DNA from: an uncultured bacterium
GTDB lineage: Bacteria > SAR324 > NAC60-12
Assembly: GCA_964010765.1 (NCBI GenBank)
Contig: CAXGMD010000003.1
Span: 27,885-91,884 of the forward strand
Length of the DNA: 64,000 bases
Direction of reading: 5' to 3'
The stretch's first letter is position 1, and every line of letters begins with the position of its first letter. This document shows, one piece after another, positions 4,333 to 58,134 of the stretch. The notes under the pieces are model-generated. The model did not search any database, had not been told where the DNA came from, and was given only the letters and a program-made list of their open reading frames with translations. The translations under genes and the position numbers were made by a program.

Positions 4333-5190
4333 ATGACAACTCCTCAATCTCACTATGTGTTGTGCTGTGAACGAGAACTCCATGTAGAAGTTTGGAATCC
4401 TGCTGCGAGTGAAACTCTGGTCCTTTGGCACGGATTGACACGTACAGGAAGAGACTTTCGCACACTGGCAACCCATCTCCCTCCACACTATCGCCTGCTA
4501 ATTCCTGATACTCTTGGACGAGGTCATTCGCAGTGGGCACAAGATCCAATAGTGGAATATACCGTCCCATTCTACATGAAACAGGCAGTTGCTTTGTTAG
4601 ACCATTTTCAGGTCGAGCGTTGTGGCTGGATCGGAACTTCGATGGGTGGGATCATGGGCATGCTGCTTGGAGCCACCAGTTTACATAAGCTCTTGGTGGG
4701 ACTAGTGATCAACGATATCGGTCCAGAGTTACCCACCGGAGCGATTCAGAGGATTGCGAGCTACGTTTCCAGGCCCCCAACTCTCAACAATTTTCAGGAA
4801 CTGAAGCAGTACTTTCAGCAGGTCTACCAACCGTTTGGGTGGCTTAGTGATCAGGAATGGCAGGAATTAGCAATTTCCTCAGCTAGGAGGAAAGATGATG
4901 GGAGATGGACCGTTCACTACGATGTACGTTTATCAGAACCCTTTGCCCAAGCGTCCCAAGGAAGAGATCTGTGGGAGATCTACGAGCAGATTTGTTGTCC
5001 AGTGATGATTCTTCGAGGTGAATTTTCCGATATACTGACTCCCAGTGTTGCAGAACAAATGACAACTAGGGGGCCAATGGGAAAGTTGTTTACCCTCCCG
5101 AACTGTGGACATGCACCCTATCTGAACACTCCCGAACAAATCGGTCTTCTAAAGAAATTTTTGCAGGAGATTTTCCACCAAGCTTCCTAA
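4333..5190 (+). CDS. Alpha/beta fold hydrolase
   Basis: HGLTR oxyanion motif, GTSMGG nucleophile elbow, GHAP catalytic His; ATG 4333 preferred over TTG 4282. Confidence 0.88.
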   Translation: MTTPQSHYVLCCERELHVEVWNPAASETLVLWHGLTRTGRDFRTLATHLPPHYRLLIPDTLGRGHSQWAQDPIVEYTVPFYMKQAVALLDHFQVERCGWIGTSMGGIMGMLLGATSLHKLLVGLVINDIGPELPTGAIQRIASYVSRPPTLNNFQELKQYFQQVYQPFGWLSDQEWQELAISSARRKDDGRWTVHYDVRLSEPFAQASQGRDLWEIYEQICCPVMILRGEFSDILTPSVAEQMTTRGPMGKLFTLPNCGHAPYLNTPEQIGLLKKFLQEIFHQAS

Positions 5191-6989
5191 GCAGCTGCCT
5201 GTAACCGCTGCGACCAGTTACAAGCTTGCTGGAGATACTCTTTCTCCCCGTCTTCATTGAGGAGTGGTGAAATCTCTTCCCAAACTCGCTTGTGATAGTG
5301 CTGCAACCAATTCCATTCGTCTTCTGTAAGCAGTTCTTCGCAGACTAGCTTACGCTCAAAGGGGATCAGGGTCAGTGTGTCAAAGCAAAGCCACTTTTTG
5401 CCATCTGGATGCCTAGGATGCTGGGTAGCTGACTGCACAACATAGAGATTTTCCAAGCGAACTCCTCCCCAACCCGTGCGATAGTACCCAGGCTCATTGG
5501 AAATGATCATTCCAGACCGAAAACCAACATCTCCAGCAAAGGCCGATATGCGTTGTGGCCCTTCATGCACTCCAAGGAAGGCTCCTACGCCGTGACCCGT
5601 TCCATGTCCAAAATCAAGTCCTTCATTCCATAACAAAGATCGAGTCACACCATCCAGCACCGCACCATTCGTACCCTCAGGAAAAACCTGGCGAGCCAGT
5701 CGAATATGTGCTTGCAGCACCCTCGTATAGCATCGTTGTTGCTCAGCATCAGGCTCTCCCCAGATCATCGTACGAGTCGCATCGGTTGTTCCTCCTCCAC
5801 ACTGAATTCCAGAGTCGACCAATAGGAATTCGCCATCTGTCAGAATTTTCTCTGCACTCGGATTGCTGTAATGAACAATCGCTGCGTTAGCACCAGCTCC
5901 AGCAATTGTTTCAAAGCTCAAATCTGCAAAATCTGGTCGTTTCTCATAGTAGCTACGTAGCCATCCAGCATATTGTTGTTCACTTACCTTTTCACTATTC
6001 CGCTCAGCTTGCTTCAATCTAGCAAGACTCTGAACTTTTCCAACTGCTGCCTGTCGGTGAGCGTAGCGAATACGCTGCAATTCGACTTCATTCTTCAGAG
6101 CACGTGGCATGATAACTGGACTTTCTGCTTCCAATACCTGGGCAGATTGATCTTGTAATAATAGCAAGGTGCCCATTGTAACCCCCTGTGGGTCCAACCA
6201 AACATACGCAGAATCATCCGCTGCTAAATGCTTCAAGGTGGGAGCGTAGTCCTCATATGGATAGAACGTCCAATCCGTTAGTGATTTTAGTTCTGTGCTA
6301 GTAGGAAAATGACAAAAGCAGATTGCTTCTGTCTTGGAAATCAGCGCATAGGATTCGAAGACTGGATTACAAGGAACGTCCTTTCCCCGCAAATTAGTCA
6401 ACCAGGCAATCTCATCTAGCTGGGTCAACAATAAATGTGTAGCCTGATGTTTATCTAGTTGGTCACGCAATTCTGTCAATTTTTCTAAGGTGGAACGACC
6501 CGTCCAAGAAAGTGGCAACAAATTAGGTTCTACCCGTTCAGGCATCGCAATTGATCCGGTCTGATCAACTAAGTTACCAAGCACTGGTACCAACTCCGAC
6601 TGGCAGTTCATCAACGCCTGCGACCAACGTCGCCAACTCCGTGGGCTAACTGTAAACGGATCTACTCCGAAACGACATCCAATCGATTGCCCTGCGAGCC
6701 ATTCCACGACGTCTGGAACTCCGGCGAGCCCTAGTTTTCGGATTTCAAAATGATCTCCGCTTTGCGCATCTGCTTGAATATAGTAGCGAGAGTCTACAAA
6801 AAGCTGCGATCGTCCTTCCCGCAGAACAATCGCAATGCCAGCAGATCCATTGAATCCGCTCAATGCTTCCAAACGACGATGGTGCAGAGGCACATACTCG
6901 TTCAGGTGCTCATCTGTCGTTGGTACTAAATAGCCATCTAATTCAGATTCCTGAATCAACTTCTGTAGCTGAGACAGACGACTGGACAT
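5187..6989 (-). CDS. Xaa-Pro aminopeptidase (aminopeptidase P family, M24B)
   Basis: DEHLNEY, DSG..GGTTDATRT, HGTGHGVG..VHEGP, SNEPGYY, GVRLEN. Confidence 0.93.
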   Translation of the reverse strand: MSSRLSQLQKLIQESELDGYLVPTTDEHLNEYVPLHHRRLEALSGFNGSAGIAIVLREGRSQLFVDSRYYIQADAQSGDHFEIRKLGLAGVPDVVEWLAGQSIGCRFGVDPFTVSPRSWRRWSQALMNCQSELVPVLGNLVDQTGSIAMPERVEPNLLPLSWTGRSTLEKLTELRDQLDKHQATHLLLTQLDEIAWLTNLRGKDVPCNPVFESYALISKTEAICFCHFPTSTELKSLTDWTFYPYEDYAPTLKHLAADDSAYVWLDPQGVTMGTLLLLQDQSAQVLEAESPVIMPRALKNEVELQRIRYAHRQAAVGKVQSLARLKQAERNSEKVSEQQYAGWLRSYYEKRPDFADLSFETIAGAGANAAIVHYSNPSAEKILTDGEFLLVDSGIQCGGGTTDATRTMIWGEPDAEQQRCYTRVLQAHIRLARQVFPEGTNGAVLDGVTRSLLWNEGLDFGHGTGHGVGAFLGVHEGPQRISAFAGDVGFRSGMIISNEPGYYRTGWGGVRLENLYVVQSATQHPRHPDGKKWLCFDTLTLIPFERKLVCEELLTEDEWNWLQHYHKRVWEEISPLLNEDGEKEYLQQACNWSQRLQAAA

Positions 6990-10147: not shown

Positions 10148-12025
10148 ATGACGCTTCGCTCACTGCAATTCCTCATTCTGCTAGTAATCTTTTGCTGGGG
10201 TTCTCCACTAACCGGTTTCGGAGAATCCTCGAACCAGATCAGCACAGGCAAAGGGAAACCTTCGCTCCAGGCCATTGCAGATCAAAGATACTACGACATT
10301 CCCATCAAGCTCAATGAGCGAGTGCAACAGATGCTACGCTACTACACCGAGCGTAAGCATTCCATTCTTAACCGTGGACTTGCTCGTTCTGGGCGATACA
10401 TGGATATGTTCCGCAGAGAACTACGAGCTTGGGGCCTTCCACAGGACTTAGTCTTCGTTGTTGCGGTGGAAAGTAACTTCAATGAACGCTCTGTCTCCGT
10501 CAAGCAGGCCGTCGGGCTCTGGCAGTTCATGTCAACCACAGCACAGCAATATCAGCTTAGGGTAGATCCTTGGATTGATCAACGCAGAGATCCTCTCAAA
10601 GCTACACGCGCTGCCGCACAGCACTTCAAATACCTTTACGAAATTTTTGGTGATTGGGAACTTGTGCTGGCAGCCTATAATGCTGGTGAAGGAAGAGTTC
10701 AGCGTGCGATGGAACGAGCCAAGCAGCGAAAAAAACCAACTGACTTCTGGTCGCTATCTTTACCTCGGGAAACGCGGAGCTACGTTCCAGCAATCATGGC
10801 TACCGCAATCATCTACAAGAACTTAGATTATTTCGGAATCACTGGTGTTGCACTAGAACCTCCAATGGAACAGTCACAGTTCCAAGTACCTGTCGACTTT
10901 TCCTTCCAAGAAGTCGCTCAGCGTGCGGGAATGCCACTAGACGAATTGCTCACCTACAATATGGCATATCTCCGAGAGATGCCGCCCATTGATCAGAAAC
11001 ATTACACTATCTACCTTCCACAGAAATATCAGCCTGCACTGTGGCAATCTCTTCGCCAGTATGGTGAGCCTTCTTCCCACTGGCTCCAGCACTACAATAG
11101 CATGTTGCAAGACACTCCAGAAAATCTACAAACTCTTGAGCGCCATGGTGACTTGAAATATGTGCGTGTGCAACGAGGAGAGAATCTATCGACAATTTCG
11201 CGCAAGTACAACACAACCATCACAAGACTATTGCGCTGGAACCGAATCCCTAAAAATCAGCTTCTGCAAGTTGGACAACGCCTCAAGATGTATGTTGTCA
11301 ATCGCAAGGTCTTGGAAGACGTTCGAGAAAAAAATCAAAACCTGGAAGAGCGTATCCGTGGGACACAGTTTGTCATCCGGGTTCCCAAAGGAGCAACCCT
11401 CTCTGAACTGGCAGAGCGATACCACACAAACATCAAAGAGCTAATGACGATCAATCGCTTACGCTCACCAATGGATCTGCAAGCTGGCCAATCTCTAAAG
11501 ATTTATGCTCGCCCCAAAACGATTCAAGTTCCCCAAGGAGCAACGCTATCCAACTTAGCACAACGCTATGATGTTTCTGTAAAGGAGTTGATGGCTTGGA
11601 ATAATCTTGCTGCTCCTAATGCTTTGCAGGCGAACCAGACACTAATCATTGCTCCACCACCCGAACCAACCTCTCAACAACTGGTTCAGGAAAAACAGGT
11701 CAGAATAAGGGTTCCCCAAGGAGCAACCCTCTCTGAACTGGCAGAGCGCTATAATGTGACTGTCAGTAAATTGATGGAATGGAACAATCTGAAAAGTTCT
11801 GATTCACTACTTGCGGGACAACAACTCACCGTATTTAGAGAGATCACACAAAACAACAAAGCAACCCACAGAATTATCCAGGTGCGTATGGGTGATACTC
11901 TCTGGGATATTGCTAGAGAACACAGGACTTCTGTTGAGCAACTCTTGGTTCTTAATGATCTTGAAGGAAACGAACCATTACGACTTAACCAAAAGTTAAA
12001 GGTACCCGTCCGACCAGATATTTGA
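10148..12025 (+). CDS. MltD-like lytic murein transglycosylase with five LysM domains
   Basis: SLT motifs VESNF, AVGLWQFM, AAYNAGEG, ETRSYVP; five LysM repeats plus one degenerate copy. Confidence 0.92.
   Translation: MTLRSLQFLILLVIFCWGSPLTGFGESSNQISTGKGKPSLQAIADQRYYDIPIKLNERVQQMLRYYTERKHSILNRGLARSGRYMDMFRRELRAWGLPQDLVFVVAVESNFNERSVSVKQAVGLWQFMSTTAQQYQLRVDPWIDQRRDPLKATRAAAQHFKYLYEIFGDWELVLAAYNAGEGRVQRAMERAKQRKKPTDFWSLSLPRETRSYVPAIMATAIIYKNLDYFGITGVALEPPMEQSQFQVPVDFSFQEVAQRAGMPLDELLTYNMAYLREMPPIDQKHYTIYLPQKYQPALWQSLRQYGEPSSHWLQHYNSMLQDTPENLQTLERHGDLKYVRVQRGENLSTISRKYNTTITRLLRWNRIPKNQLLQVGQRLKMYVVNRKVLEDVREKNQNLEERIRGTQFVIRVPKGATLSELAERYHTNIKELMTINRLRSPMDLQAGQSLKIYARPKTIQVPQGATLSNLAQRYDVSVKELMAWNNLAAPNALQANQTLIIAPPPEPTSQQLVQEKQVRIRVPQGATLSELAERYNVTVSKLMEWNNLKSSDSLLAGQQLTVFREITQNNKATHRIIQVRMGDTLWDIAREHRTSVEQLLVLNDLEGNEPLRLNQKLKVPVRPDI
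11379..11748 (+). repeat. Near-identical 40-nt direct repeat inside LysM coding sequence
   Basis: gggttccc(a/c)aaggagcaaccctctctgaactggcagagcg at 11379-11418 and 11709-11748, one mismatch; partial third copy near 11528. Confidence 0.85.
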
Positions 12026-12073
12026 GCAACATACCCATCAGCCTTCCTTTTCTCGTCTCATTCGAAATCCCCA

Positions 12074-12937
12074 ATGAAAATCAGCCCTCAGGACAAGAAA
12101 GATCTACTGATCGAGGCTCTATCTTACATTCAGCGCTTCCGTAACCAGATCATCGTTATCAAGTACGGAGGAGCCGCAATGATCGAGGAAGCCCTGAAAA
12201 CCAGCTTTGCCCAAGACATTGTGCTGCTGCAATCCTTAGGAATGCGACCAGTCGTTGTCCATGGTGGTGGTCCAGAAGTATCGAAGGTGATCCAGAGCCT
12301 AGGCCAGGAAGTGACCTTCGTTGATGGACTAAGGGTAACGACTGCAGAGAATCTGAAGGTCGCTGAGATGGTACTCTCAGGAAACCTCAATAAAGAGATT
12401 ATCGCTCATTTACAGACTTTCGGGGGGAAAGCAGTCGGACTTAGCGGGAAGGATGGAAATCTGATTCAAGCTGACAAGAAAAAGCACGCCAGTGGCATCG
12501 ACCTCGGCTATGTAGGCACTATCAGACAGATCAATCCCGAACTGTTGCACCTACTAATTCGAGAGCAGTTCATTCCAGTTGTCTCGCCAATAGGGATGGG
12601 GAGTAGTGGTGGGACCTACAACATCAATGCCGACACTGTCGCGGCTGCAATTGCAGTTGCTTTAGAAGCACGCAAGGTGATTTTCATGACTGATGTTGAT
12701 GGGGTACTATCAGATGGGAAAGAGTTGATTTCTTATCTGGACACGGCTACTGCAGAAAACTTGATCGCCAACAAGGTGATTTCAGGTGGGATGGTCCCTA
12801 AAATTCAGGCTGCGTTGGATTGCGTTAAAACCAACGTTCGTTCGGCTCACATCATTAACGGAACCGATCCGCACTCTGTGATTGCTGAACTATTTACGGA
12901 TCAAGGGATTGGAACACAGATAGTGAGGGCTGAATGA
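12074..12937 (+). CDS. argB: Acetylglutamate kinase
   Basis: VIKYGGAAM, VVHGGGP, GLRVT, NINADTVA, GGMVPKI. Confidence 0.95.
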   Translation: MKISPQDKKDLLIEALSYIQRFRNQIIVIKYGGAAMIEEALKTSFAQDIVLLQSLGMRPVVVHGGGPEVSKVIQSLGQEVTFVDGLRVTTAENLKVAEMVLSGNLNKEIIAHLQTFGGKAVGLSGKDGNLIQADKKKHASGIDLGYVGTIRQINPELLHLLIREQFIPVVSPIGMGSSGGTYNINADTVAAAIAVALEARKVIFMTDVDGVLSDGKELISYLDTATAENLIANKVISGGMVPKIQAALDCVKTNVRSAHIINGTDPHSVIAELFTDQGIGTQIVRAE

Positions 12938-13946: not shown

Positions 13947-14168
13947 TTAACTTTGATCAACCGCATCATGCTTCTGCTGCAGCTTCCGTACCCAGTAGAA
14001 TCCACCAATCAGCATTACTACTGGCAGTACCGTCAAGAAAGCTGTCGTCAGGTAAAATGCGGCTCTTGTATTCTCTGAGGAAGAGAAGCAAACCGCACAG
14101 GCGTGTACATCGAAATGCAGGAATAAACTAGCTAAGCCAGTAATCGCAATAGCAGGAACAGCTTTCAC
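13947..14168 (-). CDS. Small membrane protein with a CxxC motif at the end of the cox operon
   Basis: GTG 14168 preceded by GAGGA; signal-like segment ending VHA, then CAVC, then one TM helix. Confidence 0.7.
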   Translation of the reverse strand: MKAVPAIAITGLASLFLHFDVHACAVCFSSSENTRAAFYLTTAFLTVLPVVMLIGGFYWVRKLQQKHDAVDQS

Positions 14169-14173
14169 AATCC

Positions 14174-14773
14174 TCAAAGCAAGTAGACAAGTGTATATAA
14201 AACTGGCCAAACTCCAACCACAAAATACCAGAAGATTTGGGCTGCACGGAGGTTGTCAATTGTCAGTTGCTGGGAAGTGGAGTTGAGCCTCCTCAAACAA
14301 GCAAGCAAAGCGAGTAGTCCCCCAATCACATGAAGCCCGTGAGCTCCGATGATCAGATAGAAGACACCTCCATAGGTACTGGAAGTGATGGTCAACCCAA
14401 AACTGATCAACTGGACCCACTCGTATCCCTGCACACTGACAAAGACCGTCCCCAGAGCAATCGTAAGAGCAAGCAACTGCTTGGACTGTGAGGCCTGAGA
14501 AGAGAACACCTTTACAGACCGATGCAGACAGAAGGCACTCGCCAAGAGAGTCAAGGAATTTAGTGCTGTTGCAAACACAGGAAGCCGAGGCTGCCCCCAT
14601 GGAGGCCACTCTTCCGCACCAGAGCGGATGATCATGTAGGCACTGATTAATGCTGCAAAGAACATCACCTCTGTCATGATCAGAATGACAGTCGCAAAAA
14701 TGCTGCTTGAAACTAGTTGTCTACGTTCAGCATTCGAATTTGCTGGAATCTCAGGAGCTACGAGTAAAATCAC
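14174..14773 (-). CDS. Cytochrome c oxidase subunit III-like protein (second copy)
   Basis: TEVMFFAALISAY, QGYEW, GAHGLHV, FWYFVVGVWPVLY. Confidence 0.9.
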   Translation of the reverse strand: MILLVAPEIPANSNAERRQLVSSSIFATVILIMTEVMFFAALISAYMIIRSGAEEWPPWGQPRLPVFATALNSLTLLASAFCLHRSVKVFSSQASQSKQLLALTIALGTVFVSVQGYEWVQLISFGLTITSSTYGGVFYLIIGAHGLHVIGGLLALLACLRRLNSTSQQLTIDNLRAAQIFWYFVVGVWPVLYTLVYLL

Positions 14774-14776
14774 GAA

Positions 14777-15127
14777 TCACCGAAGTTGACCATCGACATA
14801 CCTTTGTTGCTCCGCACAGGTATTGTTAGAGATACAGTCTTGCCAGTTTTGGCCATCAGCCTTCATCACGTCACCGGCAACACCAAAAAAGAATACTCCG
14901 AGCAAAACAGTAGAAATTAGCAGTAAGAACCAGACGTATTTTTTCTCAAAATTGAGATGCATGAAGTAAGCGGCGACGTAATAGGTCTTTACGAGCGCAA
15001 TTCCGAAAGCAGTCAATAGCGTGAGCCACGGAATTCCTAGCTCTGGTCCAATGATACTGACCACCAAGAGTACTAAGAGAAGTACCCAAATCTTTACATA
15101 ATTTGGATGTGCGTGTGCTCCAGCCAT
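14777..15127 (-). CDS. Cytochrome c oxidase subunit IV family protein
   Basis: Start MAGAHAHPNYVKIW; three TM helices; K..VAAYFMHL motif. Confidence 0.88.
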   Translation of the reverse strand: MAGAHAHPNYVKIWVLLLVLLVVSIIGPELGIPWLTLLTAFGIALVKTYYVAAYFMHLNFEKKYVWFLLLISTVLLGVFFFGVAGDVMKADGQNWQDCISNNTCAEQQRYVDGQLR

Positions 15128-15129
15128 AT

Positions 15130-15723
15130 TCACTTTGCGATGTAGAGGAGTGGGAAAAGGAAAATCCAGACGATATCGACAAAATGCCAATACAGCCCGA
15201 TCAATTCAACCCTGTGTGGGTTGAAGCCTTTCCTGAGATCAAAGGAGATCAAAGCCATAATGACCATACCTCCGATCACATGCAGGGCATGTAGTCCTGT
15301 TGCCGTATAGTAAAAAGACCAATAAGTATTGGTCAAAGGCGTCTTCAGCAGCTCTGGATCATCAGTGAAAAGTTTTGAGGAATATTCATAATATTTGACC
15401 AGCAAGAAGACGAGGCCTCCACCAATTGTGTACCAGATAAATTTAAATGCCCGGTCAAAATCCTTCTTCTCTGCAGCGTCGTGTGCCAATACGATGAAAA
15501 GGCTGGAAGTCAGCAGGACGAATGTATTAAACGCACCTGCTGGAACTTTCGTAAAAACAGCTTCTCCGCCCCACCAAGGATTATTTAGTCGGTAAAGAAT
15601 GTAGCAAGCAATCAATCCACCAAAAATGAAAATCTCTGAGGCTAGTAGCCACCATACCGCGAGTCGTCCGGTTGGGATTCCAGTTGCTGAACGGCTGGTT
15701 GCCAAAGGTCCTTGCATAGACAT
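15130..15723 (-). CDS. Cytochrome c oxidase subunit III-like protein (first copy)
   Basis: LASEIFIFGGL, NTFVLLTSS, TGLHALHV, GLYWHFVDIVWIFLFP. Confidence 0.92.
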   Translation of the reverse strand: MSMQGPLATSRSATGIPTGRLAVWWLLASEIFIFGGLIACYILYRLNNPWWGGEAVFTKVPAGAFNTFVLLTSSLFIVLAHDAAEKKDFDRAFKFIWYTIGGGLVFLLVKYYEYSSKLFTDDPELLKTPLTNTYWSFYYTATGLHALHVIGGMVIMALISFDLRKGFNPHRVELIGLYWHFVDIVWIFLFPLLYIAK

Positions 15724-15778
15724 AATGATTTCTCAGAAGGTCATTCAGGGGAGAAACAAAGTTCTCCCTTGTTTATAA

Positions 15779-17494
15779 TCAGTTGCGATCGGGCATATTT
15801 TGAGGCCAGTAGTCTTCCTTATTACCAGGGACACTGTATTCATAGGGCCCACGATACACAGTAGGAAGTTCTGCAAAGTTGCCGTGGGGAGGAGGCGATG
15901 GAACTGTCCATTCTAGTGTATTAGATTTCCAAGGATTCGCTGGAGCCTTCTCTCCTTTGAACATGCTTACGAAAAAATTGTATGCGAAGACGAATTGAAA
16001 TAACAGCATGGTCACCATGGAAACCGTTGCAAAGACACGGATTCCTTGTAGATCAGCTGTAGCCAAGTCTGGAAAGTGCTGAAAATTATAAATTCGTCGA
16101 TGCTGTCCAGCCATTCCAACTAGGAAGAGAGGTAAGAATATACCATTGAAAGGAATGATTGTACCCCAGAAGTGGATCTTACCCAGCGTTTCATCCATCA
16201 TTCTTCCAAACATTTTTGGATACCAGTAGTACAAGCCTGCGAACATCCCAATGATCGCAATGGGGAAAAAGGTATAGTGGAAGTGTGCGATTACGAAATA
16301 ACTGTCATGAAAATAGATATCCAAGGCACTAGAACCAAGGTAGATTCCTGTGACACCACCAAGCAGAAAGGTAATTAAGAAACCCAGTGCCCACAGCATC
16401 GGGGTTCGGAATTCAATTGACCCTCCGTAAAGCGTAGCTATGTAACTGAATAAAATTTCGGCGATAGGAATTGAAATCAGCAGGGTTGTAACGAGGAAGA
16501 TGTTTGCCATGCGAGGGTCAATTCCAGCAATAAACTGGTGGTGGGCCCAAACAACAAATGCCAGTCCACCTGTTGCGAAGGTAGTGTAGAGAATTGTCTT
16601 GTAGCCAAAGAGTTTCTTGCGAGCAAAGGTTGTCATGATCTCAGCGACGATACCTAGGGCTGGAAGCAAGACCACATATACCTCTGGGTGACCAAAAAAC
16701 CAGAATAAGTGCTGCCAAAGTATTGGATCACCACCCCCAGAAGGCACAAAGAAGGTGGTACCAATTCGCTGGTCCATCAGAAGCATGATCGATCCAGCTA
16801 TCAATGGACCAACTGAAGCCATGAACATGATCGAAGCCAATACAATCATCCAGACTACCATGGGAATGTCGGTCATCCGCATTCCTGGCGCACGAGCGTT
16901 CATCGAAGTAGTTACAAAATTAATCCCTCCGATCAGGAACGCCACAAACTCAAGGGCGACAGCAATCAACCAAAGTGAGGCTCCCCAATCCGTCAGGTTG
17001 TATTCGGCGACTGCTGATAAGGGGGGATAAGAAGTCCAGGCTCCGCCAAATCCTCCACCTTGTACGAAGAAGGACATGAACAGGACCACTACACTGAGTA
17101 GAAAGATTTGGAAGGATAAACGATTCAGTCTTGGAAAGACCATATCGTCGCAGCCGATCATCAGTGGGATCAGGATGTTTCCGAAAGCGGCGATGAGTAC
17201 AGGCATCGCTACCCAGAAAATCATGATTGAACCATGGTTGGTGATCAGCATGTTGTATTCTCCCGGTCCGACCGTGCCATAGAGCGGGACTTCCATGCCT
17301 GGGAAGGCTAACTGCATACGGAAGGCATAAGCGAAATACCCTCCGACAATTGCCATGAACATTCCCGTAAACATGTACTGCAACCCAATGATCTTGTGAT
17401 CAGTAGAGAAGAAGTACTTCATCATGAAGCTTTGTTCGTGATGGTCATGTCCGTGAGCGGCATGACTATCATGGGTGACCGTCGTCTGTCCCAT
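15779..17494 (-). CDS. coxA: Cytochrome c oxidase subunit I, A1-type (GHPEVY)
   Basis: All six His ligands (TNHG, GHPEVY, WAHH, AHFH), cross-link Tyr, RR pair, D-channel residues. Confidence 0.96.
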   Translation of the reverse strand: MGQTTVTHDSHAAHGHDHHEQSFMMKYFFSTDHKIIGLQYMFTGMFMAIVGGYFAYAFRMQLAFPGMEVPLYGTVGPGEYNMLITNHGSIMIFWVAMPVLIAAFGNILIPLMIGCDDMVFPRLNRLSFQIFLLSVVVLFMSFFVQGGGFGGAWTSYPPLSAVAEYNLTDWGASLWLIAVALEFVAFLIGGINFVTTSMNARAPGMRMTDIPMVVWMIVLASIMFMASVGPLIAGSIMLLMDQRIGTTFFVPSGGGDPILWQHLFWFFGHPEVYVVLLPALGIVAEIMTTFARKKLFGYKTILYTTFATGGLAFVVWAHHQFIAGIDPRMANIFLVTTLLISIPIAEILFSYIATLYGGSIEFRTPMLWALGFLITFLLGGVTGIYLGSSALDIYFHDSYFVIAHFHYTFFPIAIIGMFAGLYYWYPKMFGRMMDETLGKIHFWGTIIPFNGIFLPLFLVGMAGQHRRIYNFQHFPDLATADLQGIRVFATVSMVTMLLFQFVFAYNFFVSMFKGEKAPANPWKSNTLEWTVPSPPPHGNFAELPTVYRGPYEYSVPGNKEDYWPQNMPDRN

Positions 17495-17519
17495 ACTTTC
17501 TCCTAAAACACTTCTTGGT

Positions 17520-18287
17520 TTAGAAGCTGCTGAGCAGCTTATCTGTGAAGGATTCGCTATTCGATGCCGTGCTGACTGTCATCTTCTGAAGTCGTTTTTG
17601 ATAATCACTTTCGTAAGTTCGGTTGCGGATCGATTCCATAGCAGCATCATAGGACTGCTGGTCCTCATGAACTACGATTGTTGCACCCATAATTCCGTGA
17701 CCATATCCACAAATTTCTGCGCATTGGATATCATATATGCCTGTCTTATTGGGCTCAAACCAGCCCGTGATTGTACGGCCAGGAATCGTGTCCTGCCGCA
17801 ATCGGAAGGCCGGAACAGAGAAATTATGCAGCACATCACGAGATTCTAGTTCGAAGTGATAGACTGTGTCTTTCTTCACATGCAGATCATTGACGGTAGA
17901 TATATCATCTTCGGTATCCAGCTTACCATCAGGGCCTGAGTGGATAAAGAACCAACTCCACTGCTGCCCCACTACTCGAATCTTATCCTCTGCCTGAGGC
18001 AAGGTTTGCTTCACATCCACCCAAACCATTACCGTAAAAACGATAATAACTACGTCAAGTGCGATCACGGAGTAGTGTGGATAGTGCGTCCATTTCTTCT
18101 GAGAATGTGGATCACCTGAGATGTAAGCGGCTCGCACACCTTCTTTTCGTCGGAAACGAACCATGAAATAGGTCATCACTGCCAATACCATCACGAACCA
18201 AAAGCCCACAATGACCGTGATCATATCGAACAGGAAATCTATGTCGCCAGCATACGTTGAAGCACCAGGCACAAAATATTCAATCAT
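17520..18287 (-). CDS. coxB: Cytochrome c oxidase subunit II (CuA)
   Basis: Two TM helices; QQWSW, DVLHNF, CAEICGYGHGIM CuA motif; no fused cytochrome c. Confidence 0.94.
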   Translation of the reverse strand: MIEYFVPGASTYAGDIDFLFDMITVIVGFWFVMVLAVMTYFMVRFRRKEGVRAAYISGDPHSQKKWTHYPHYSVIALDVVIIVFTVMVWVDVKQTLPQAEDKIRVVGQQWSWFFIHSGPDGKLDTEDDISTVNDLHVKKDTVYHFELESRDVLHNFSVPAFRLRQDTIPGRTITGWFEPNKTGIYDIQCAEICGYGHGIMGATIVVHEDQQSYDAAMESIRNRTYESDYQKRLQKMTVSTASNSESFTDKLLSSF

Positions 18288-18296
18288 TTTAACTCC

Positions 18297-18413
18297 CTAC
18301 AGCACATACAAGATAACGGCTATGATGAATAGCGCACACCCCGCAGCCACGAGTCTGAAGGCTTTACTGGCCAACTCGTCGCTATCGAGTTTTTTCATGA
18401 TATGATCTTCCAT
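18297..18413 (-). CDS. 38-aa single-TM protein in the cox operon (below the ORF track cutoff)
   Basis: MEDHIMKKLDSDELASKAFRLVAAGCALFIIAVILYVL; GAGGTAGG before the ATG; fills the ctaB-coxB gap. Confidence 0.75.
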   Translation of the reverse strand: MEDHIMKKLDSDELASKAFRLVAAGCALFIIAVILYVL

Positions 18414-18419
18414 CCTACC

Positions 18420-19322
18420 TCATAGAAATATTCGATCCAATGTCAACACCACACACCAGGCAGGCAAATAAATGATTGATGCGAAAAACACCTTTCTCGC
18501 ATTCTGCTCATTGCGGTGCAGCCAGAATTGAAGAGTTGGCATCAAGAAACCGACTCCCAAGAGTGTAGCAACAACAAGAAAGAAAGGTCCTGCCTGTTCA
18601 AACCAGAATACGGAAGCACTGGCTAGAATCAGTAGGGCGGTATGCAGTACCATGTGTACTGCAGTCAAGCGCCCATCTTCATCAACACTAGAGAGCATCC
18701 GGAATCCACCTTTACGGTATTCGTCCTGATACATCCAAGCGATGGCGAAAAAATGTGGCATCTGCCACAGGTAAAGTACTGCAAAAATTGGGAGTGCTCC
18801 CCACTCTAAAGCTCCGGTTGCTGCGCTCCAGCCCATCAGTGGAGGCAGAGCTCCGGTTATGGCACCAACCCAAGTGTTGGCAACCGTTTTTTGCTTCAAT
18901 GGAGTGTAGAGCAAAAGGTATGTCAGGTGCGTCGCAGCACCCAAAAATGCCGTAAGCCAGCCGGTGAATGCGAAAAGATAGCTAAAACCAACGATGCTTA
19001 GCGTAGCTCCTAATAGGATGGCTTCTTCTTCGCTGACTCGCCCCGTTGGGATCGGACGCTGACAAGTCCTGCGCATGCGGCCGTCCTGCTCACGCTCAAA
19101 CCACTGATTGAGTACATGCGCACCGCCACCAATCAGAAGTGTACCAAGAATCAAGTGAAAGATTTTAGTGGGATCGCTGGTAACTCCGGGCAGGTAGTAT
19201 CCCATCATCGCACTCAATACCACCATGCCCAATAAACGTGGCTTGCAGAGGGTCCAGTAGTCACCCAGGCGACTACGCCACTGATCAATGGGGGAGAGGA
19301 AGGTGATTGACTTAGTTCTCAT
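18420..19322 (-). CDS. ctaB: Protoheme IX farnesyltransferase (heme O synthase)
   Basis: LCKPR, NQWFEREQDGRMRRT..RP, YTPLK, WQMPHF, DEYRKGG. Confidence 0.95.
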   Translation of the reverse strand: MRTKSITFLSPIDQWRSRLGDYWTLCKPRLLGMVVLSAMMGYYLPGVTSDPTKIFHLILGTLLIGGGAHVLNQWFEREQDGRMRRTCQRPIPTGRVSEEEAILLGATLSIVGFSYLFAFTGWLTAFLGAATHLTYLLLYTPLKQKTVANTWVGAITGALPPLMGWSAATGALEWGALPIFAVLYLWQMPHFFAIAWMYQDEYRKGGFRMLSSVDEDGRLTAVHMVLHTALLILASASVFWFEQAGPFFLVVATLLGVGFLMPTLQFWLHRNEQNARKVFFASIIYLPAWCVVLTLDRIFL

Positions 19323-19658: not shown

Positions 19659-20375
19659 ATGAAATTCAAGGTTGTTTCGGCTGATGCAACAGATTCATCA
19701 CAATCCAGTGACGATCCAAGAGTTCGTATTGAAGGATTGATTGAGACTAGCCCAGTTTTTCTATTCATGAAAGGCACCCCTGAAGCCCCACAATGCGGAT
19801 TTTCCTATCGCGTCTGTGAAGTCCTACGAGGATGGAACGTGCCATTTCGTTCCTTCAATGTTTTAGCAGATCCTGATATTCGACAAGGCATCAAAGAGTT
19901 CACAAACTGGCCTACCATCCCTCAACTCTATGTAAATCAAGAATTTGTTGGTGGGTGTGACATAATAGAGGAACTCTCACAATCAGGTGAACTACGAGAA
20001 TTACTGGAAGAAGCGTATCCTGAGCAAAACTTTGAGCCTCCTCCTCCTCCTGCCCAAGTTCAGGCCATTTCGCCTACACAAGCCAAGCAAATGCTGAAAG
20101 AAAACCCCGAGCTAACGGTACTGGACATTCGTGAGCCTGACGAGCGAGAATATGCAAAGCTGGAACGGTCTCAAGTACTAGATCACAAGCTCGCTGATGA
20201 AATTCTGAACCAATGGGATGCGAACACTCCCCTGCTGCTGATGTGCCACCGCGGTATCCGGAGTATGGAAGCTGCACAATTTTTTATTTCCCGTGGTTTT
20301 CAACAGGTTTTCAATATTGATGGTGGCATTGACCGTTGGTCTGACGAAGTCGATTCCAGTATTCCACGCTACTAA
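19659..20375 (+). CDS. Monothiol glutaredoxin (Grx4) fused to a rhodanese domain
   Basis: MKGTPEAPQCGFS, WPTIPQL, GGCD; proline-rich linker; LDIREPDE, CHRGIRS, GGIDRW. Confidence 0.92.
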   Translation: MKFKVVSADATDSSQSSDDPRVRIEGLIETSPVFLFMKGTPEAPQCGFSYRVCEVLRGWNVPFRSFNVLADPDIRQGIKEFTNWPTIPQLYVNQEFVGGCDIIEELSQSGELRELLEEAYPEQNFEPPPPPAQVQAISPTQAKQMLKENPELTVLDIREPDEREYAKLERSQVLDHKLADEILNQWDANTPLLLMCHRGIRSMEAAQFFISRGFQQVFNIDGGIDRWSDEVDSSIPRY

Positions 20376-56286: not shown

Positions 56287-56692
56287 AATCAAAAATCTAC
56301 TCAGATGAACTAATCTCAAAGCAACATAAAAATCCAAAGCAGTCTTCGCTAATGCACCCACTCTACTTGACTCTCACAGAAAAACAGCAATTGCCCTCTT
56401 TCCTGCAGACGTTGATGGGAGTTGACATAGACAAGTTGGTGGATGATGCGATGAACACTCTGATTGGAGATCATCAAGTGACTTACTCAGTGAAATTCTT
56501 CAGTAGCCAGAAGTATTGTAGCTAGCAACCGCGAAATCGCTGATCAGCCAACTTTTGTACAAACCTACTGAATGAACGAAACACTTGACAAAATTTACCA
56601 TTTAATTGATTTGTTTCATTTTCAGGAGAATAGTTACTCAAACCACTTTGGTTTTTCCCCAGAAAATAGGAAGCAGAGAGTCGAAAACATCC

Positions 56693-57502
56693 ATGCCAAT
56701 GCACAGATCTCTTGAAAAGGTTCTGCAATATGACCGTTGGGTAATTATTGCGCTTTTGGTGACTGTTACAATCAGCAGTTGGCTGTTTGTAATCAAAGGT
56801 GCCGGTACGGGAATGTCTGCTGCGATGATGACAGGGATTGACCTTGCTACTGGAGGTGGTATGCGAATGCCCGCTGAGATGCCCTCCTGGACATTTGCGT
56901 ACGCGATAATTATGTTTTTCATGTGGTGGATCATGATGATCGCCATGATGCTGCCAAGTGCTAGTCCAACTATTCTACTCTTTGCTCGCGCCAGACATGA
57001 CAAGCAAGAGACAGATAAAGCCCATTTACCTTCAACAGTTTTTGCTTCAGGTTATCTCCTTGCTTGGGCCGTGTTCAGTGCGATTGCGGTCATTGCTCAG
57101 TGGGCCCTTGAAGGAGTACAACTCCTGAATAAGATGATGGTTTCGACGTCGCCTGTACTCGGAGGTGGGCTACTACTTGTTGCAGGACTATGGCAGTTTA
57201 CACCTTGGAAACACGCATGTTTGCGTCATTGCCGTTCGCCACTTACATTTCTGATGACACGCTGGAGGCCGGGGTTGAAAGGCGCGCTTATCATGGGGGT
57301 TGACCATGGCTCATTTTGCCTTGGTTGCTGTTGGTTCCTGATGGCACTGCTCTTTTTCGGTGGGATCATGAATTTGTGGTGGATTGGGGGCTTAGCACTC
57401 TATGTTTTAGCTGAAAAAACCTTACCCTCAGGGCATTGGGTCGGGTATGGATTTGGTCTCATACTAGTCATCTGGGGCGGCTGGATGATGATTTCCGTTT
57501 AA
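56693..57502 (+). CDS. DUF2182 predicted metal-binding membrane protein
   Basis: MWWIMMIAMMLPS, QFTPWKHACLRHCRSP, CLGCCWFLM..GIMNL, EK. Confidence 0.9.
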   Translation: MPMHRSLEKVLQYDRWVIIALLVTVTISSWLFVIKGAGTGMSAAMMTGIDLATGGGMRMPAEMPSWTFAYAIIMFFMWWIMMIAMMLPSASPTILLFARARHDKQETDKAHLPSTVFASGYLLAWAVFSAIAVIAQWALEGVQLLNKMMVSTSPVLGGGLLLVAGLWQFTPWKHACLRHCRSPLTFLMTRWRPGLKGALIMGVDHGSFCLGCCWFLMALLFFGGIMNLWWIGGLALYVLAEKTLPSGHWVGYGFGLILVIWGGWMMISV

Positions 57503-57522
57503 TCTTCAAAAAAGGATAGAAA

Positions 57523-58134
57523 ATGGGATGGAATATTGAAGGACAGTATGTGGAAACCTGTAATTGTGCTTTCCTCTGTCCGTGTATAACTTCAAACTTG
57601 TCAGCAAAACCAACTGAAGGTGATTGTAAAGCGGCTCTCGGGATGAGGATTGATAGCGGCGAAAAAGATGGGGTGAGTCTCAGTGGATTATCCTTTGTTG
57701 TCTTACTGCACTCCCCAGGACCCATGGTAGATGGCAACATCAAAGTTGGTTTGATCATTGATGAGAAAGCTGACGATGCTCAAGCTGACGCGATCAGTCA
57801 GATTGCATCAGGCTCAGTAGGAGGCCCAATGGCTGCTTTGGCACCCTTGGTTGGAGAAATGGCGGGCATCGAAAAAAGAGCCATCTCCATTGAAGGAGAA
57901 GGCCTTACATTTTCGCTTGAGGCTGGAGAACTTGTAAACCTATCAGTGGAGGGACTGCCGGGGGCAAATGAAGATGGTGAGCCTATTTACCTTGAGCACG
58001 TACCTCATCCAGCCAATTCCCGACTTGCTTTAGCTAAAGCCACTAACAGTGCATTTCATGCATTTGGCATAGACTGGGATGATTCTACTGGATTGCGGAA
58101 TGGCCATTTCCAAAAATTTTCTTGGGCAGCTTGA
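57523..58134 (+). CDS. DUF1326 family protein
   Basis: W.IEGQYVETCNCAFLCPC, PTEGDC, PGPMVDGN, IDEKA, C-terminal FSWA. Confidence 0.9.
   Translation: MGWNIEGQYVETCNCAFLCPCITSNLSAKPTEGDCKAALGMRIDSGEKDGVSLSGLSFVVLLHSPGPMVDGNIKVGLIIDEKADDAQADAISQIASGSVGGPMAALAPLVGEMAGIEKRAISIEGEGLTFSLEAGELVNLSVEGLPGANEDGEPIYLEHVPHPANSRLALAKATNSAFHAFGIDWDDSTGLRNGHFQKFSWAA

Follow-up and report, generated by a model that had tools for sequence, protein, structure and literature searches.

A conserved A1-type cytochrome c oxidase that lacks the canonical K-channel residues and carries a clade-specific set of polar residues

A cytochrome c oxidase encoded in a 64,000-nucleotide stretch of DNA from an uncultured bacterium of the SAR324 lineage (assembly GCA_964010765.1, contig CAXGMD010000003.1, positions 27,885 to 91,884 of the forward strand; the whole stretch is hereafter called the window) is an A1-type enzyme in which the K-channel residues have been replaced and a Glu (E346) stands in helix VIII of subunit I, one residue before the site of the missing Lys. 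It belongs to a conserved and widespread A1-type subfamily without the canonical K-channel, which is apparently functional, and it is the only recognizable O2 reductase in its genome. The textbook proof that the K-channel is needed to reduce the active site of A-type oxidases comes from mutants of K362. The enzymes of this clade are natural, conserved carriers of the equivalents of K362M/I, T359I, S299A, and E101Q, and they may show how an A-type oxidase works without a K-channel. We tentatively favor, at a little under an even chance, a working oxidase of the aa3 type that receives protons by a rewired, Lys-free route at the interface of helix VII, helix VIII, and subunit II.

Replacement of the K-channel residues

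The features on which this assignment rests are the following.

15779..17494, minus strand: cytochrome c oxidase subunit I, 571 amino acids, A1 type (GHPEVY); Pfam COX1 (PF00115), E 1.4e-129
16454..16465, minus strand: helix VIII turn I344-A345-E346-I347, aligned with T359-G360-I361-K362 of Rhodobacter sphaeroides; Lys and Thr lost, Glu gained
16643..16645, minus strand: A284, the site of K-channel S299; Ala in 120/121 sequences of the homologue set described below, Ser in 133/137 K-bearing sequences
17520..18287, minus strand: cytochrome c oxidase subunit II, 255 amino acids, with a CuA site and without a cytochrome c domain; Pfam COX2, E 1.8e-14
18099..18101, minus strand: Q63 of subunit II, the site of the K-channel entrance Glu (R. 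sphaeroides E101) in the alignment to 1m56_B

Among all PDB chains, the best phmmer match of subunit I is R. sphaeroides 1m56_A (E 4.4e-130), and residues 281-383 of the query pair with residues 296-398 of this chain without a gap, which bears out the offset of 15 given in a preliminary description of this DNA. S299, H300, T359, G360, I361, and K362 of R. sphaeroides correspond in this alignment to A284, E285, I344, A345, E346, and I347, respectively. The codons of the helix VIII turn were checked, that of E346 being GAA at 16457-16459 on the minus strand. The description's central claim, hydrophobic residues at the K-channel sites and a Glu one residue before the lost Lys, is therefore correct, and neither Lys nor Thr, either of which it had named as fatal to that claim, occupies the canonical positions in the proper alignment. 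Its further statements, that subunit II has no obvious equivalent of E101 and that the cross-link Tyr, the His ligands of CuB and the hemes, and the CuA site are kept, also agree with the alignments: H269, E271, Y273, H318, and H319 pair with H284, E286, Y288, H333, and H334 of R. sphaeroides, and H87, H404, and H406 are conserved. E285 was considered as a second new Glu and rejected, as the same site holds E, H, Q, or D in K-bearing enzymes too.

The family assignment is firm. The AlphaFold2 (AF2) model of subunit I has a predicted local distance difference test score (pLDDT) of 93.2 and a predicted template modeling score (pTM) of 0.92; its top Foldseek match is Paracoccus denitrificans 7ate_A (TM scores 0.88/0.93, 39% identity), and A-family structures rank first. 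By the scheme of Sousa et al. 2011 (PMC3084760), the fold, the CuB and heme His ligands, and the cross-link residue Tyr-I are those of type A, whose K-channel consists of K354, T351, S291, and Y280 in P. denitrificans numbering; only the Tyr of this set is kept, the others being I347, I344, and A284. Placement in subtype A1 follows from E271, which lies within FGHPEVY and not in the YS motif of A2. On the NCBIfam profile TIGR02891 (CtaD_CoxA) subunit I scores 577.7 bits, below the equivalog cut-off of 670.75. Several public records name members of the clade 'cbb3-type cytochrome c oxidase subunit I'; the score below the CtaD cut-off may be the cause of this generic mislabel, a point of some consequence for annotation.

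In subunit II, the residue at site 63 varies inside the clade and is Glu in all four K-bearing relatives compared (L027, L029, L030, and L034). The CuA ligands H154, C189, E191, C193, H197, and M200 are invariant in 23/23 clade subunit II sequences (the set leaves aside L025 and P0122), as is W112, which we take to be the electron-entry Trp. This pattern (H..C.E.C...H..M plus Trp) is the one expected of an enzyme with cytochrome c as electron donor.

Conservation and distribution of the clade

Conservation was assessed in the best 120 of 8000 scored homologues (73-98% identity), and the counts of 121 given here include the query. E346 is present in all 121 sequences and residue 344 is I, L, or V in all of them, whereas residue 347 is M in 98, I in 10, L in 10, V in 2, and T in 1, and Lys in none. 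The preliminary description had asked whether the PIAE motif and the loss of Lys mark a conserved clade or are peculiar to one assembly. They do mark such a clade, and all 120 of these homologues share the substitutions. An artefact or pseudogene was rejected on the strength of this conservation together with 91-99% identical copies in 7/8 other genomes of the same genus (one of the seven copies is split into two pieces), and it is also countered by the presence of the gene in many independent sequencing runs.

Among 1.84 billion cluster representatives, the K-less clade with Glu amounts to about one cluster at 50% identity (P0121, 72% identical to the query, 954 bits); beyond it there is one outlier at 64%, followed by a fall to 46-47% identity at 531 bits. 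Species-representative genomes yielded 18 loci at 69% identity or more, 17 of them with the Glu, in MAGs (metagenome-assembled genomes) or isolates under the labels Bdellovibrionaceae, Archangiaceae, Gemmatimonadaceae, Longimicrobiales, Puniceicoccaceae, Myxococcota, Bradymonadia, Polyangiales, and Eisenbacteria. SAR324 is the source label of a member of an 804-member cluster (78% identity), and DNA of the clade is present in many marine metagenomes. The loss of Lys and the Glu are thus marks of a conserved clade spread over phyla (SAR324, Myxococcota, Bdellovibrionota, and Gemmatimonadota labels, and others). The plasmid collection held no member of the clade, its best match being 45% identical.

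Two individual records deserve mention. A contig of a MAG labeled Klebsiella pneumoniae (L017, CAMASI010000044.1) carries a core-clade oxidase operon at 69% identity, and it is probably mis-binned or the MAG mislabeled. One contig of a related genome (G016:C62) holds two diverged copies of the clade's subunit I gene about 4 kb apart, at 4701-6377 and 10784-12442, which are 72% and 80% identical to the query.

For the wider comparisons, sequences were sorted into 'core', 'sister', and 'K-bearing' groups according to their residues at 318-320, 346, and 347. Within the groups, counts at these sites therefore follow from the definitions, and counts at other sites do not.

Clade-specific polar residues and their predicted arrangement

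Further residues by which the clade differs from K-bearing enzymes, apart from those near the D-channel, are listed here.

16571..16597, minus strand: hydroxyl ladder of helix VII, T300, T304, and T308 (spacing i+4), with a fourth rung at 312 that is Ala in the query and Ser in most of the clade
16472..16474, minus strand: S341 in helix VIII; Ser throughout the core and the sisters, Ala or Gly in K-bearing enzymes
16535..16537, minus strand: Q320, directly after the CuB ligands H318 and H319; Met in 134/137 K-bearing sequences
18075..18077, minus strand: H71 of subunit II ('PH' motif at the start of the second transmembrane helix, TM2), core-clade specific; His in all core rows and not in sister rows L022-L028
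18054..18056, minus strand: D78 of subunit II, an invariant TM2 Asp beside a four-residue insertion; 23/23 sequences (core, sisters, and a lineage without E346 described below)

Judging from the aligned sequences, E346 belongs to a larger set of polar residues, specific to the clade, that includes T300/T304/T308, S341, and E182 in subunit I and H71 and D78 in subunit II. Positions 300, 304, 308, and 312 of K-bearing enzymes hold A/G, A, I (136/137), and G, respectively, whereas T304 is found in 137/137, T308 in 134/137, and S341 in 137/137 sequences of the core group. D78 and the four-residue insertion are missing from the K-bearing relatives. For Q320, the counts of 137/137 in the core and 8/8 in the sisters are by construction, since H-H-Q at 318-320 was required for selection; independently of that selection, WAHHQF occurs in all 18 core loci and in sisters L022-L024, L026, and L028, and L025 reads WAHHMF.

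The predicted complex of subunits I and II has an ipSAE of 0.87 (best control 0.00), at least 97% of its contacts are common to the runs, and the pLDDT of the partner is at least 84; the mark applied to such predictions was reached by 116/157 solved complexes and by 2/215 mismatched pairs. In this complex, the helix VIII residues at the interface with subunit II are 334-335, 338-339, 341-342, 345-346, 348-350, and 352-353, and the TM2 residues at the interface with subunit I are 63-64, 66-67, 70-71, 74-75, 78, and 81-82. As residues 345 and 346 touch subunit II while 344 and 347 do not, E346 is predicted to point away from the old channel lumen. E346 and S341 would thus face subunit II on the side of helix VIII opposite the K-channel, and H71 and D78 of subunit II would face subunit I. 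The preliminary description had proposed to model where E346 points; in the model it does not replace the Lys in place. A depth estimate of our own, from the DSSP helix limits of the AF2 model at 1.5 Å per residue, suggests the following layers upward from the cytoplasm: T300; T304 with H71 of subunit II; T308 with E346; S312 and S341 with D78 of subunit II; and T336/T337 under the active site.

Other acidic residues of the clade lie outside this set. Many members have Glu at residue 375 of subunit I (helix IX; Thr in the query, 16370-16372, minus strand) and at residue 35 of subunit II (first transmembrane helix; Leu in the query, 18183-18185, minus strand), so that buried acidic residues vary between members. 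Subunit II also has a clade-specific acidic periplasmic loop, GPDGKLDTEDDI (GPDGxLDTxDDI; residues 116-130, window 17898-17942, minus strand), of which D120, D127, and D128 are invariant in 23/23 sequences. This loop may be metal-binding.

A retained and modified D-channel

The earlier claim that the D-channel is intact holds for its lower part and E271 but not for helix IV. The lower residues N106, D117, N124, S127, and N192, as well as Y40 and E271, are kept in the query, and lower D-channel residues are kept in most other K-less lineages of the sample too. In helix IV, however, S201, S200, and S197 of R. sphaeroides have become F186, A185, and E182.

16937..16951, minus strand: remodeled upper D-channel in helix IV, with E182, A185, and F186 at the S197, S200, and S201 sites; E182 and F186 conserved in the core and most sisters

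The S201 site is Ser in 118/137 K-bearing sequences. Measured against the type A D-channel of Sousa et al. (PMC3084760; D124, N199, N113, N131, Y35, S134, S193, and E278 in P. denitrificans numbering), seven of the eight residues are present (D117, N192, N106, N124, Y40, S127, and E271), and the S193 site, which equals R. sphaeroides S201 by our own conversion with an offset of 8, is F186. Near the D-channel, the core clade differs from the 137 K-bearing sequences at D116, R125, Q129, and E182. E182 was considered as a general mark of Lys loss and rejected, as a neighboring K-less group, here called 'PSVII', has L or I there.

Order of events in the loss of Lys and the gain of Glu

The sisters of the core clade are 52-64% identical to the query; besides P0122, they are from MAGs labeled Fibrobacteria, Oligoflexia, 'delta proteobacterium', and Calescibacterium. 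Both Lys and Glu are missing from their helix VIII turn (PFAVT, PFSLI, PFAIT, and similar). Apart from L025 (HHM, M284, and D182), they share with the core the HHQ after the CuB ligands and E182, and most also have A284. The subunit II of sisters L022, L023, and L024 carries a C-terminal CxxCH cytochrome c domain of the caa3-like kind, which the core clade does not have.

In a midpoint-rooted FastTree tree of 157 sequences and 509 columns, for which support values were not read, so that the deep order is tentative, the order outward from the core is successive sisters, then the K-less 'PSVII' group, and then the K-bearing 'PSAIK' enzymes of Acidobacteriota, Binatia, and others. Because the groups without Lys and without Glu branch as successive sisters, the Lys seems to have been lost first and E346 gained later.

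E346 has also been lost again. A nested lineage of 24 clusters around a Puniceicoccaceae K14 sequence has I or V in its place, together with T300 to L/M, T304 to S/A, and T308 to L, and it keeps S312, S341, K294, and D78 of subunit II. The fold can thus do without the Glu. In one set of 131 sequences, none shows a mixed state at 308 and 346, and the lower helix VII ladder and the Glu appear, from this pattern, to behave as one unit.

A broader sample, the 150 representatives listed (146 of which cover the site; biased towards relatives of the query), has Lys at site 347 in 91 cases and another residue in 55 (Q 14, L 12, I 12, M 5, V 4, and others). Asp or Glu occurs at positions 344-348 in 0/91 K-bearing and 10/55 K-less representatives, kin sequences not being independent; four of the ten belong to the clade and six lie outside it, five with D/E at 345 and one with E at 347. 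A carboxylate in the helix VIII turn is thus seen only where the Lys is gone. The same sample contains a separate large group of long (about 650-920 amino acids) A-family subunit I proteins with Gln in place of the K-channel Lys (14/146 representatives; P0163, P0184, P0192, P0204, P0211, and others), and two further representatives have His at this site.

Genome context

The gene for subunit I is the only PF00115 match in the source genome, which is 92.44% complete and which showed no match to cytochrome bd (PF01654); a heme A synthase gene is present. Across the taxonomic family of the window's organism, 29/31 genomes have a PF00115 match and 12/31, including the single-contig genome G018, have exactly one. 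In 8 of these 12, G018 among them, the single match is the clade enzyme (71-100% identity), the matches of G046, G048, G050, and G052 being untyped, and five of the single-match genomes showed no cytochrome bd match. Forms without E346 keep different company: each of five genomes examined that carry them has 2-5 PF00115 matches, and the one genome examined of the nested lineage described above (L008) has 3. In four metatranscriptome runs from three studies, contigs span the operon at 95-100% identity and keep the E346 codon. As DNA can occur in such libraries, this shows presence in RNA libraries without proving transcription, and it is weak support for an enzyme that the cell needs.

The oxidase gene cluster

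One oxidase gene cluster occupies 13947-19322 on the minus strand of the window; its open reading frames were searched with Pfam and NCBIfam profiles. In addition to subunits I and II, it contains the following genes.

18420..19322, minus strand: heme O synthase (ctaB/cyoE), first gene of the cluster; Pfam UbiA, E 2e-57; TIGR01473, 275.8 bits, above the cut-off of 210.3
15130..15723, minus strand: subunit III-like protein a, 197 amino acids; Pfam COX3, E 8.1e-16
14777..15190, minus strand: subunit IV, caa3 type; Pfam COX4_pro; TIGR02229, 44.8 bits, above the cut-off of 37.25
14174..14773, minus strand: subunit III-like protein b, 199 amino acids, second of the COX3 doublet; Pfam COX3, E 5.3e-19
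13947..14210, minus strand: small hydrophobic open reading frame, 87 amino acids, at the end of the cluster; no Pfam or NCBIfam match, membership tentative

Subunit II scores 140.4 bits on TIGR02866, slightly below the cut-off of 147.7. The true start of subunit IV is probably the ATG at 15125-15127, a codon that was checked in the sequence. Subunit III-like protein a directly follows the subunit I gene in 17/17 core loci long enough to show it, and the order II-I-IIIa-IV-IIIb is common to all 17 related loci that extend far enough. Phmmer matches to the 87-residue frame, weak and in some cases in long overlapping frames, follow the second COX3 gene in 13/17 core loci; this frame may encode an extra small oxidase subunit. 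A divergent gene for a glutaredoxin-rhodanese fusion protein (19659-20375, plus strand) adjoins the cluster, and farther away a DUF1326 gene comes after one for a PpoB2-type copper chaperone (56606-58134, plus strand).

A possible Lys-free route and its alternatives

How could such an enzyme obtain its protons? We suggest a distinct, CuA-containing A1 subfamily in which A284, I344, and I347, together with Q63 of subunit II, would close the K-channel, and in which the protons that normally come through it during the reduction of the heme a3-CuB center would arrive by a Lys-free route. Its course would follow the cleft bordered by helix VII, the outward side of helix VIII, and TM2 of subunit II. 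Starting from the cytoplasmic surface, protons might pass first T300 and T304 with H71 of subunit II, next T308 paired with E346, then S341 (plus S312 in most relatives) and D78 of subunit II, and last the T336/T337 level below the active site. The pumped protons would still use the D-channel, which is kept in a modified form (extra D116 and E182). We infer that the new polar residues form a proton path and that the enzyme pumps. B- and C-family oxidases, which use Lys-free alternative K-channels (Sousa et al. 2011, PMC3084760), speak for such a route, as does the proposal that helix VII sites equivalent to the C-family channel form a 'KC-channel' in K-less A1 enzymes (supplementary files of PMC8239418). 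In its favor we also count the O2 reductase marks of the enzyme and its place as sole recognizable oxidase, the conservation of the new polar residues and their restriction to enzymes without the Lys, the joint loss of the lower ladder and the Glu, the predicted geometry, and the carboxylates of other K-less lineages. The more specific proposal that the helix VII ladder, E346/S341, and H71/D78 of subunit II together make a new inter-subunit proton-input pathway, which replaces the K-channel beside a retained D-channel, is possible but somewhat doubtful. If true, it would be a third proton-delivery architecture in heme-copper oxidases, and one found in some of the most abundant deep-ocean bacteria.

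Several observations weigh against a rewired route of this kind. The loss of Lys seems to have preceded the gain of E346, although the deep order of the tree is tentative; E346 cannot be the original compensation, because the Lys was gone before the Glu and the sisters have neither. In the lineage without E346, the enzyme is otherwise conserved. E346 was gained once and lost once, each a single evolutionary event in which kin sequences are not independent counts, and the pairing of T308 with E346 is not absolute, L308 standing together with E346 in 3/137 core sequences. The query itself has Ala312, Thr375, and Leu35 (subunit II) where many relatives have Ser, Glu, and Glu, so that parts of the proposed network would be dispensable. 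As for the geometry, the predicted complex does not show T300, T304, or T308 in contact with subunit II. The orientations were read from the list of interface residues and the helix register, and the prediction may largely recall solved A-family structures. Moreover, the literature search found no biochemical study of any member of the clade.

The main rival is an oxidase that works through the D-channel only, with all chemical and pumped protons entering by a D-channel reinforced by D116 and E182, and with E346, the Thr ladder, and D78 of subunit II as packing or hydrogen-bonding residues of a remodeled I/II interface. We consider it rather unlikely, but several points favor it. All lower D-channel residues are kept here and in most other K-less lineages sampled, the conserved E182 (core and most sisters) lies in helix IV near E271 by position, and E346 and D78 sit on the I/II interface just where TM2 has its four-residue insertion. 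The Lys was lost before E346 came, and a lineage without E346 persists. Degli Esposti et al. reached the same reading for the K-less oxidases of iron oxidizers (bioRxiv 10.1101/2020.03.01.968255). The remodeling of helix IV tells the other way, as a Phe at the S201 site, Ser in K-bearing enzymes, is unlike an upgraded D-channel. In canonical A-type enzymes, K362M is not known to be rescued by the D-channel. Invariant buried carboxylates would be costly as mere packing, and in the sample acidic residues in the helix VIII turn occur only in K-less lineages. Furthermore, all five examined genomes with E-less forms have further PF00115 matches, whereas the E-bearing form is often the sole one.

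Two other explanations seem to us less probable than this. The cluster of E346 with H71 and D78 of subunit II could bind a cation, or the head group of a lipid or quinone, for regulation, sodium coupling, or subunit assembly. The predicted placement of Glu, His, and Asp on facing helices at a subunit interface, the acidic subunit II loop with its three invariant Asp residues, and the marine origin of the organism are compatible with this idea, but the cluster matches no known cation-site motif. H71 is missing in the sisters and E346 in one lineage while D78 is kept, so that the three are not one obligate site; for a quinone, the CuA site and W112 argue for cytochrome c and not quinol as the donor. 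We regard this explanation as improbable. It is more improbable still that the main substrate is not O2, the enzyme being a nitric oxide reductase (NOR) or a low-turnover scavenging oxidase with no need of fast proton delivery. Other heme-copper families have repeatedly shifted to NO reduction with altered channels (PMC11214002), but in this enzyme the cross-link Tyr is kept and CuA is present, and many genomes of the family have no other recognizable O2 reductase. Sousa et al. (PMC3084760) characterize NORs by H-X-Arom-X-E, H-H-X-Arom-Arom-X17-E, and the absence of Tyr-I; with HPEVY, HHQFI, and Y273, the sequence conforms neither to cNOR nor to qNOR.

The candidate compensating residues are defined (E346, T300/T304/T308, S341, E182, and H71 and D78 of subunit II), and the lineage without E346 is in effect a natural 'revertant'. 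Together, the residue set and this lineage make the minimum proton-delivery machinery of an A-type oxidase testable with mutants.

Comparison with known systems

The enzyme shares with the canonical aa3 oxidases of R. sphaeroides (1M56) and P. denitrificans (7ATE/1AR1) the fold, the active site, the CuA site, and the lower D-channel (D132, N121, N139, S142, and N207). It differs from them in that K362, T359, S299, and E101 of subunit II are I, I, A, and Q, and S201 and S200 are F and A. The clade adds E182, Q320, S341, E346, T300/T304/T308, and H71 and D78 of subunit II with the four-residue TM2 insertion. Two short proteins stand in the place of subunit III, and there is a subunit IV of the caa3 type. 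An operon with a COX3 doublet defines the A1 subtype a-III (CoxMNOP; PMC6431628), and the two PF00510 open reading frames of the cluster place it there. The CoxMNOP type, represented by Ralstonia solanacearum coxN (AP024104), likewise combines subunits II and I with two COX3 homologues and a subunit IV, and CoxN is 43% identical to the query over the full length, including a common C-terminal tail. However, CoxN keeps the K-channel (PTALK, GIVSD), its III/IV/III gene order differs, and the clade forms a separate K-less branch of the tree.

B- and C-family oxidases have Lys-free routes of Ser, Thr, and Tyr in the same part of subunit I (PMC3084760). These families have no D-channel, whereas the clade keeps it. 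The clade (I, I, A) does not show the B-type pattern (K to T, T to S, and S to Y), and the C-family Tyr-II is missing. The alternative K-channel of the ba3 enzymes includes a Glu of subunit II.

The preliminary description had cautioned that K-less A-family sequences may already appear in surveys. They do, as Degli Esposti et al. tabulated such A1 types in 2020 and 2021. For the A-family enzymes of iron oxidizers and their relatives, the replacement of the Lys and of the COX2 Glu was described and use of the D-channel only was proposed (bioRxiv 10.1101/2020.03.01.968255). The later K-less set includes three A1 subclades with K354, T351, S291, and COX2 E78 replaced, the same phenomenon as in the clade described here (PMC8239418); in its supplementary files the K-less taxa are Elusimicrobia, Calescamantes, Methylacidiphilaceae, and Bacteriovorax. 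The Calescamantes HR19 row (Y F T F S) matches our sister L028, and the Elusimicrobia GWA2_38_7 row (Y A I S C) matches the neighboring 'PSVII' group. In the supplementary table for Fig. S7, the pattern of the core clade (A, followed by I or M, followed by I) appears in no row. Neither 'SAR324' nor 'Myxococc' occurs in five supplementary files, where two myxobacterial rows, one of Nannocystis, are K-bearing A2 enzymes. A literature search that left the supplements of the 2020 preprint and a 2020 BBA review outside its scope found no paper on the core clade or on a Glu at site 346.

The proposed 'KC-channel' offers the closest parallel. Its sites (CcoN S240, S244, H247, and Y255) correspond to G297, I301, T304, and A312 of the query, of which one in four is protonatable, and to G, I, T, and S in most of the clade, so that the KC set includes the ladder sites T304 and S312. 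E346, T300, T308, S341, and D78 of subunit II lie outside the sites scored by Degli Esposti et al. (PMC8239418). Therefore, K-less A1 oxidases and the idea of a helix VII substitute are both in print already, while what appears to be new is this particular residue set, its behavior as a module, and the status of the enzyme as the sole recognizable oxidase of its genome.

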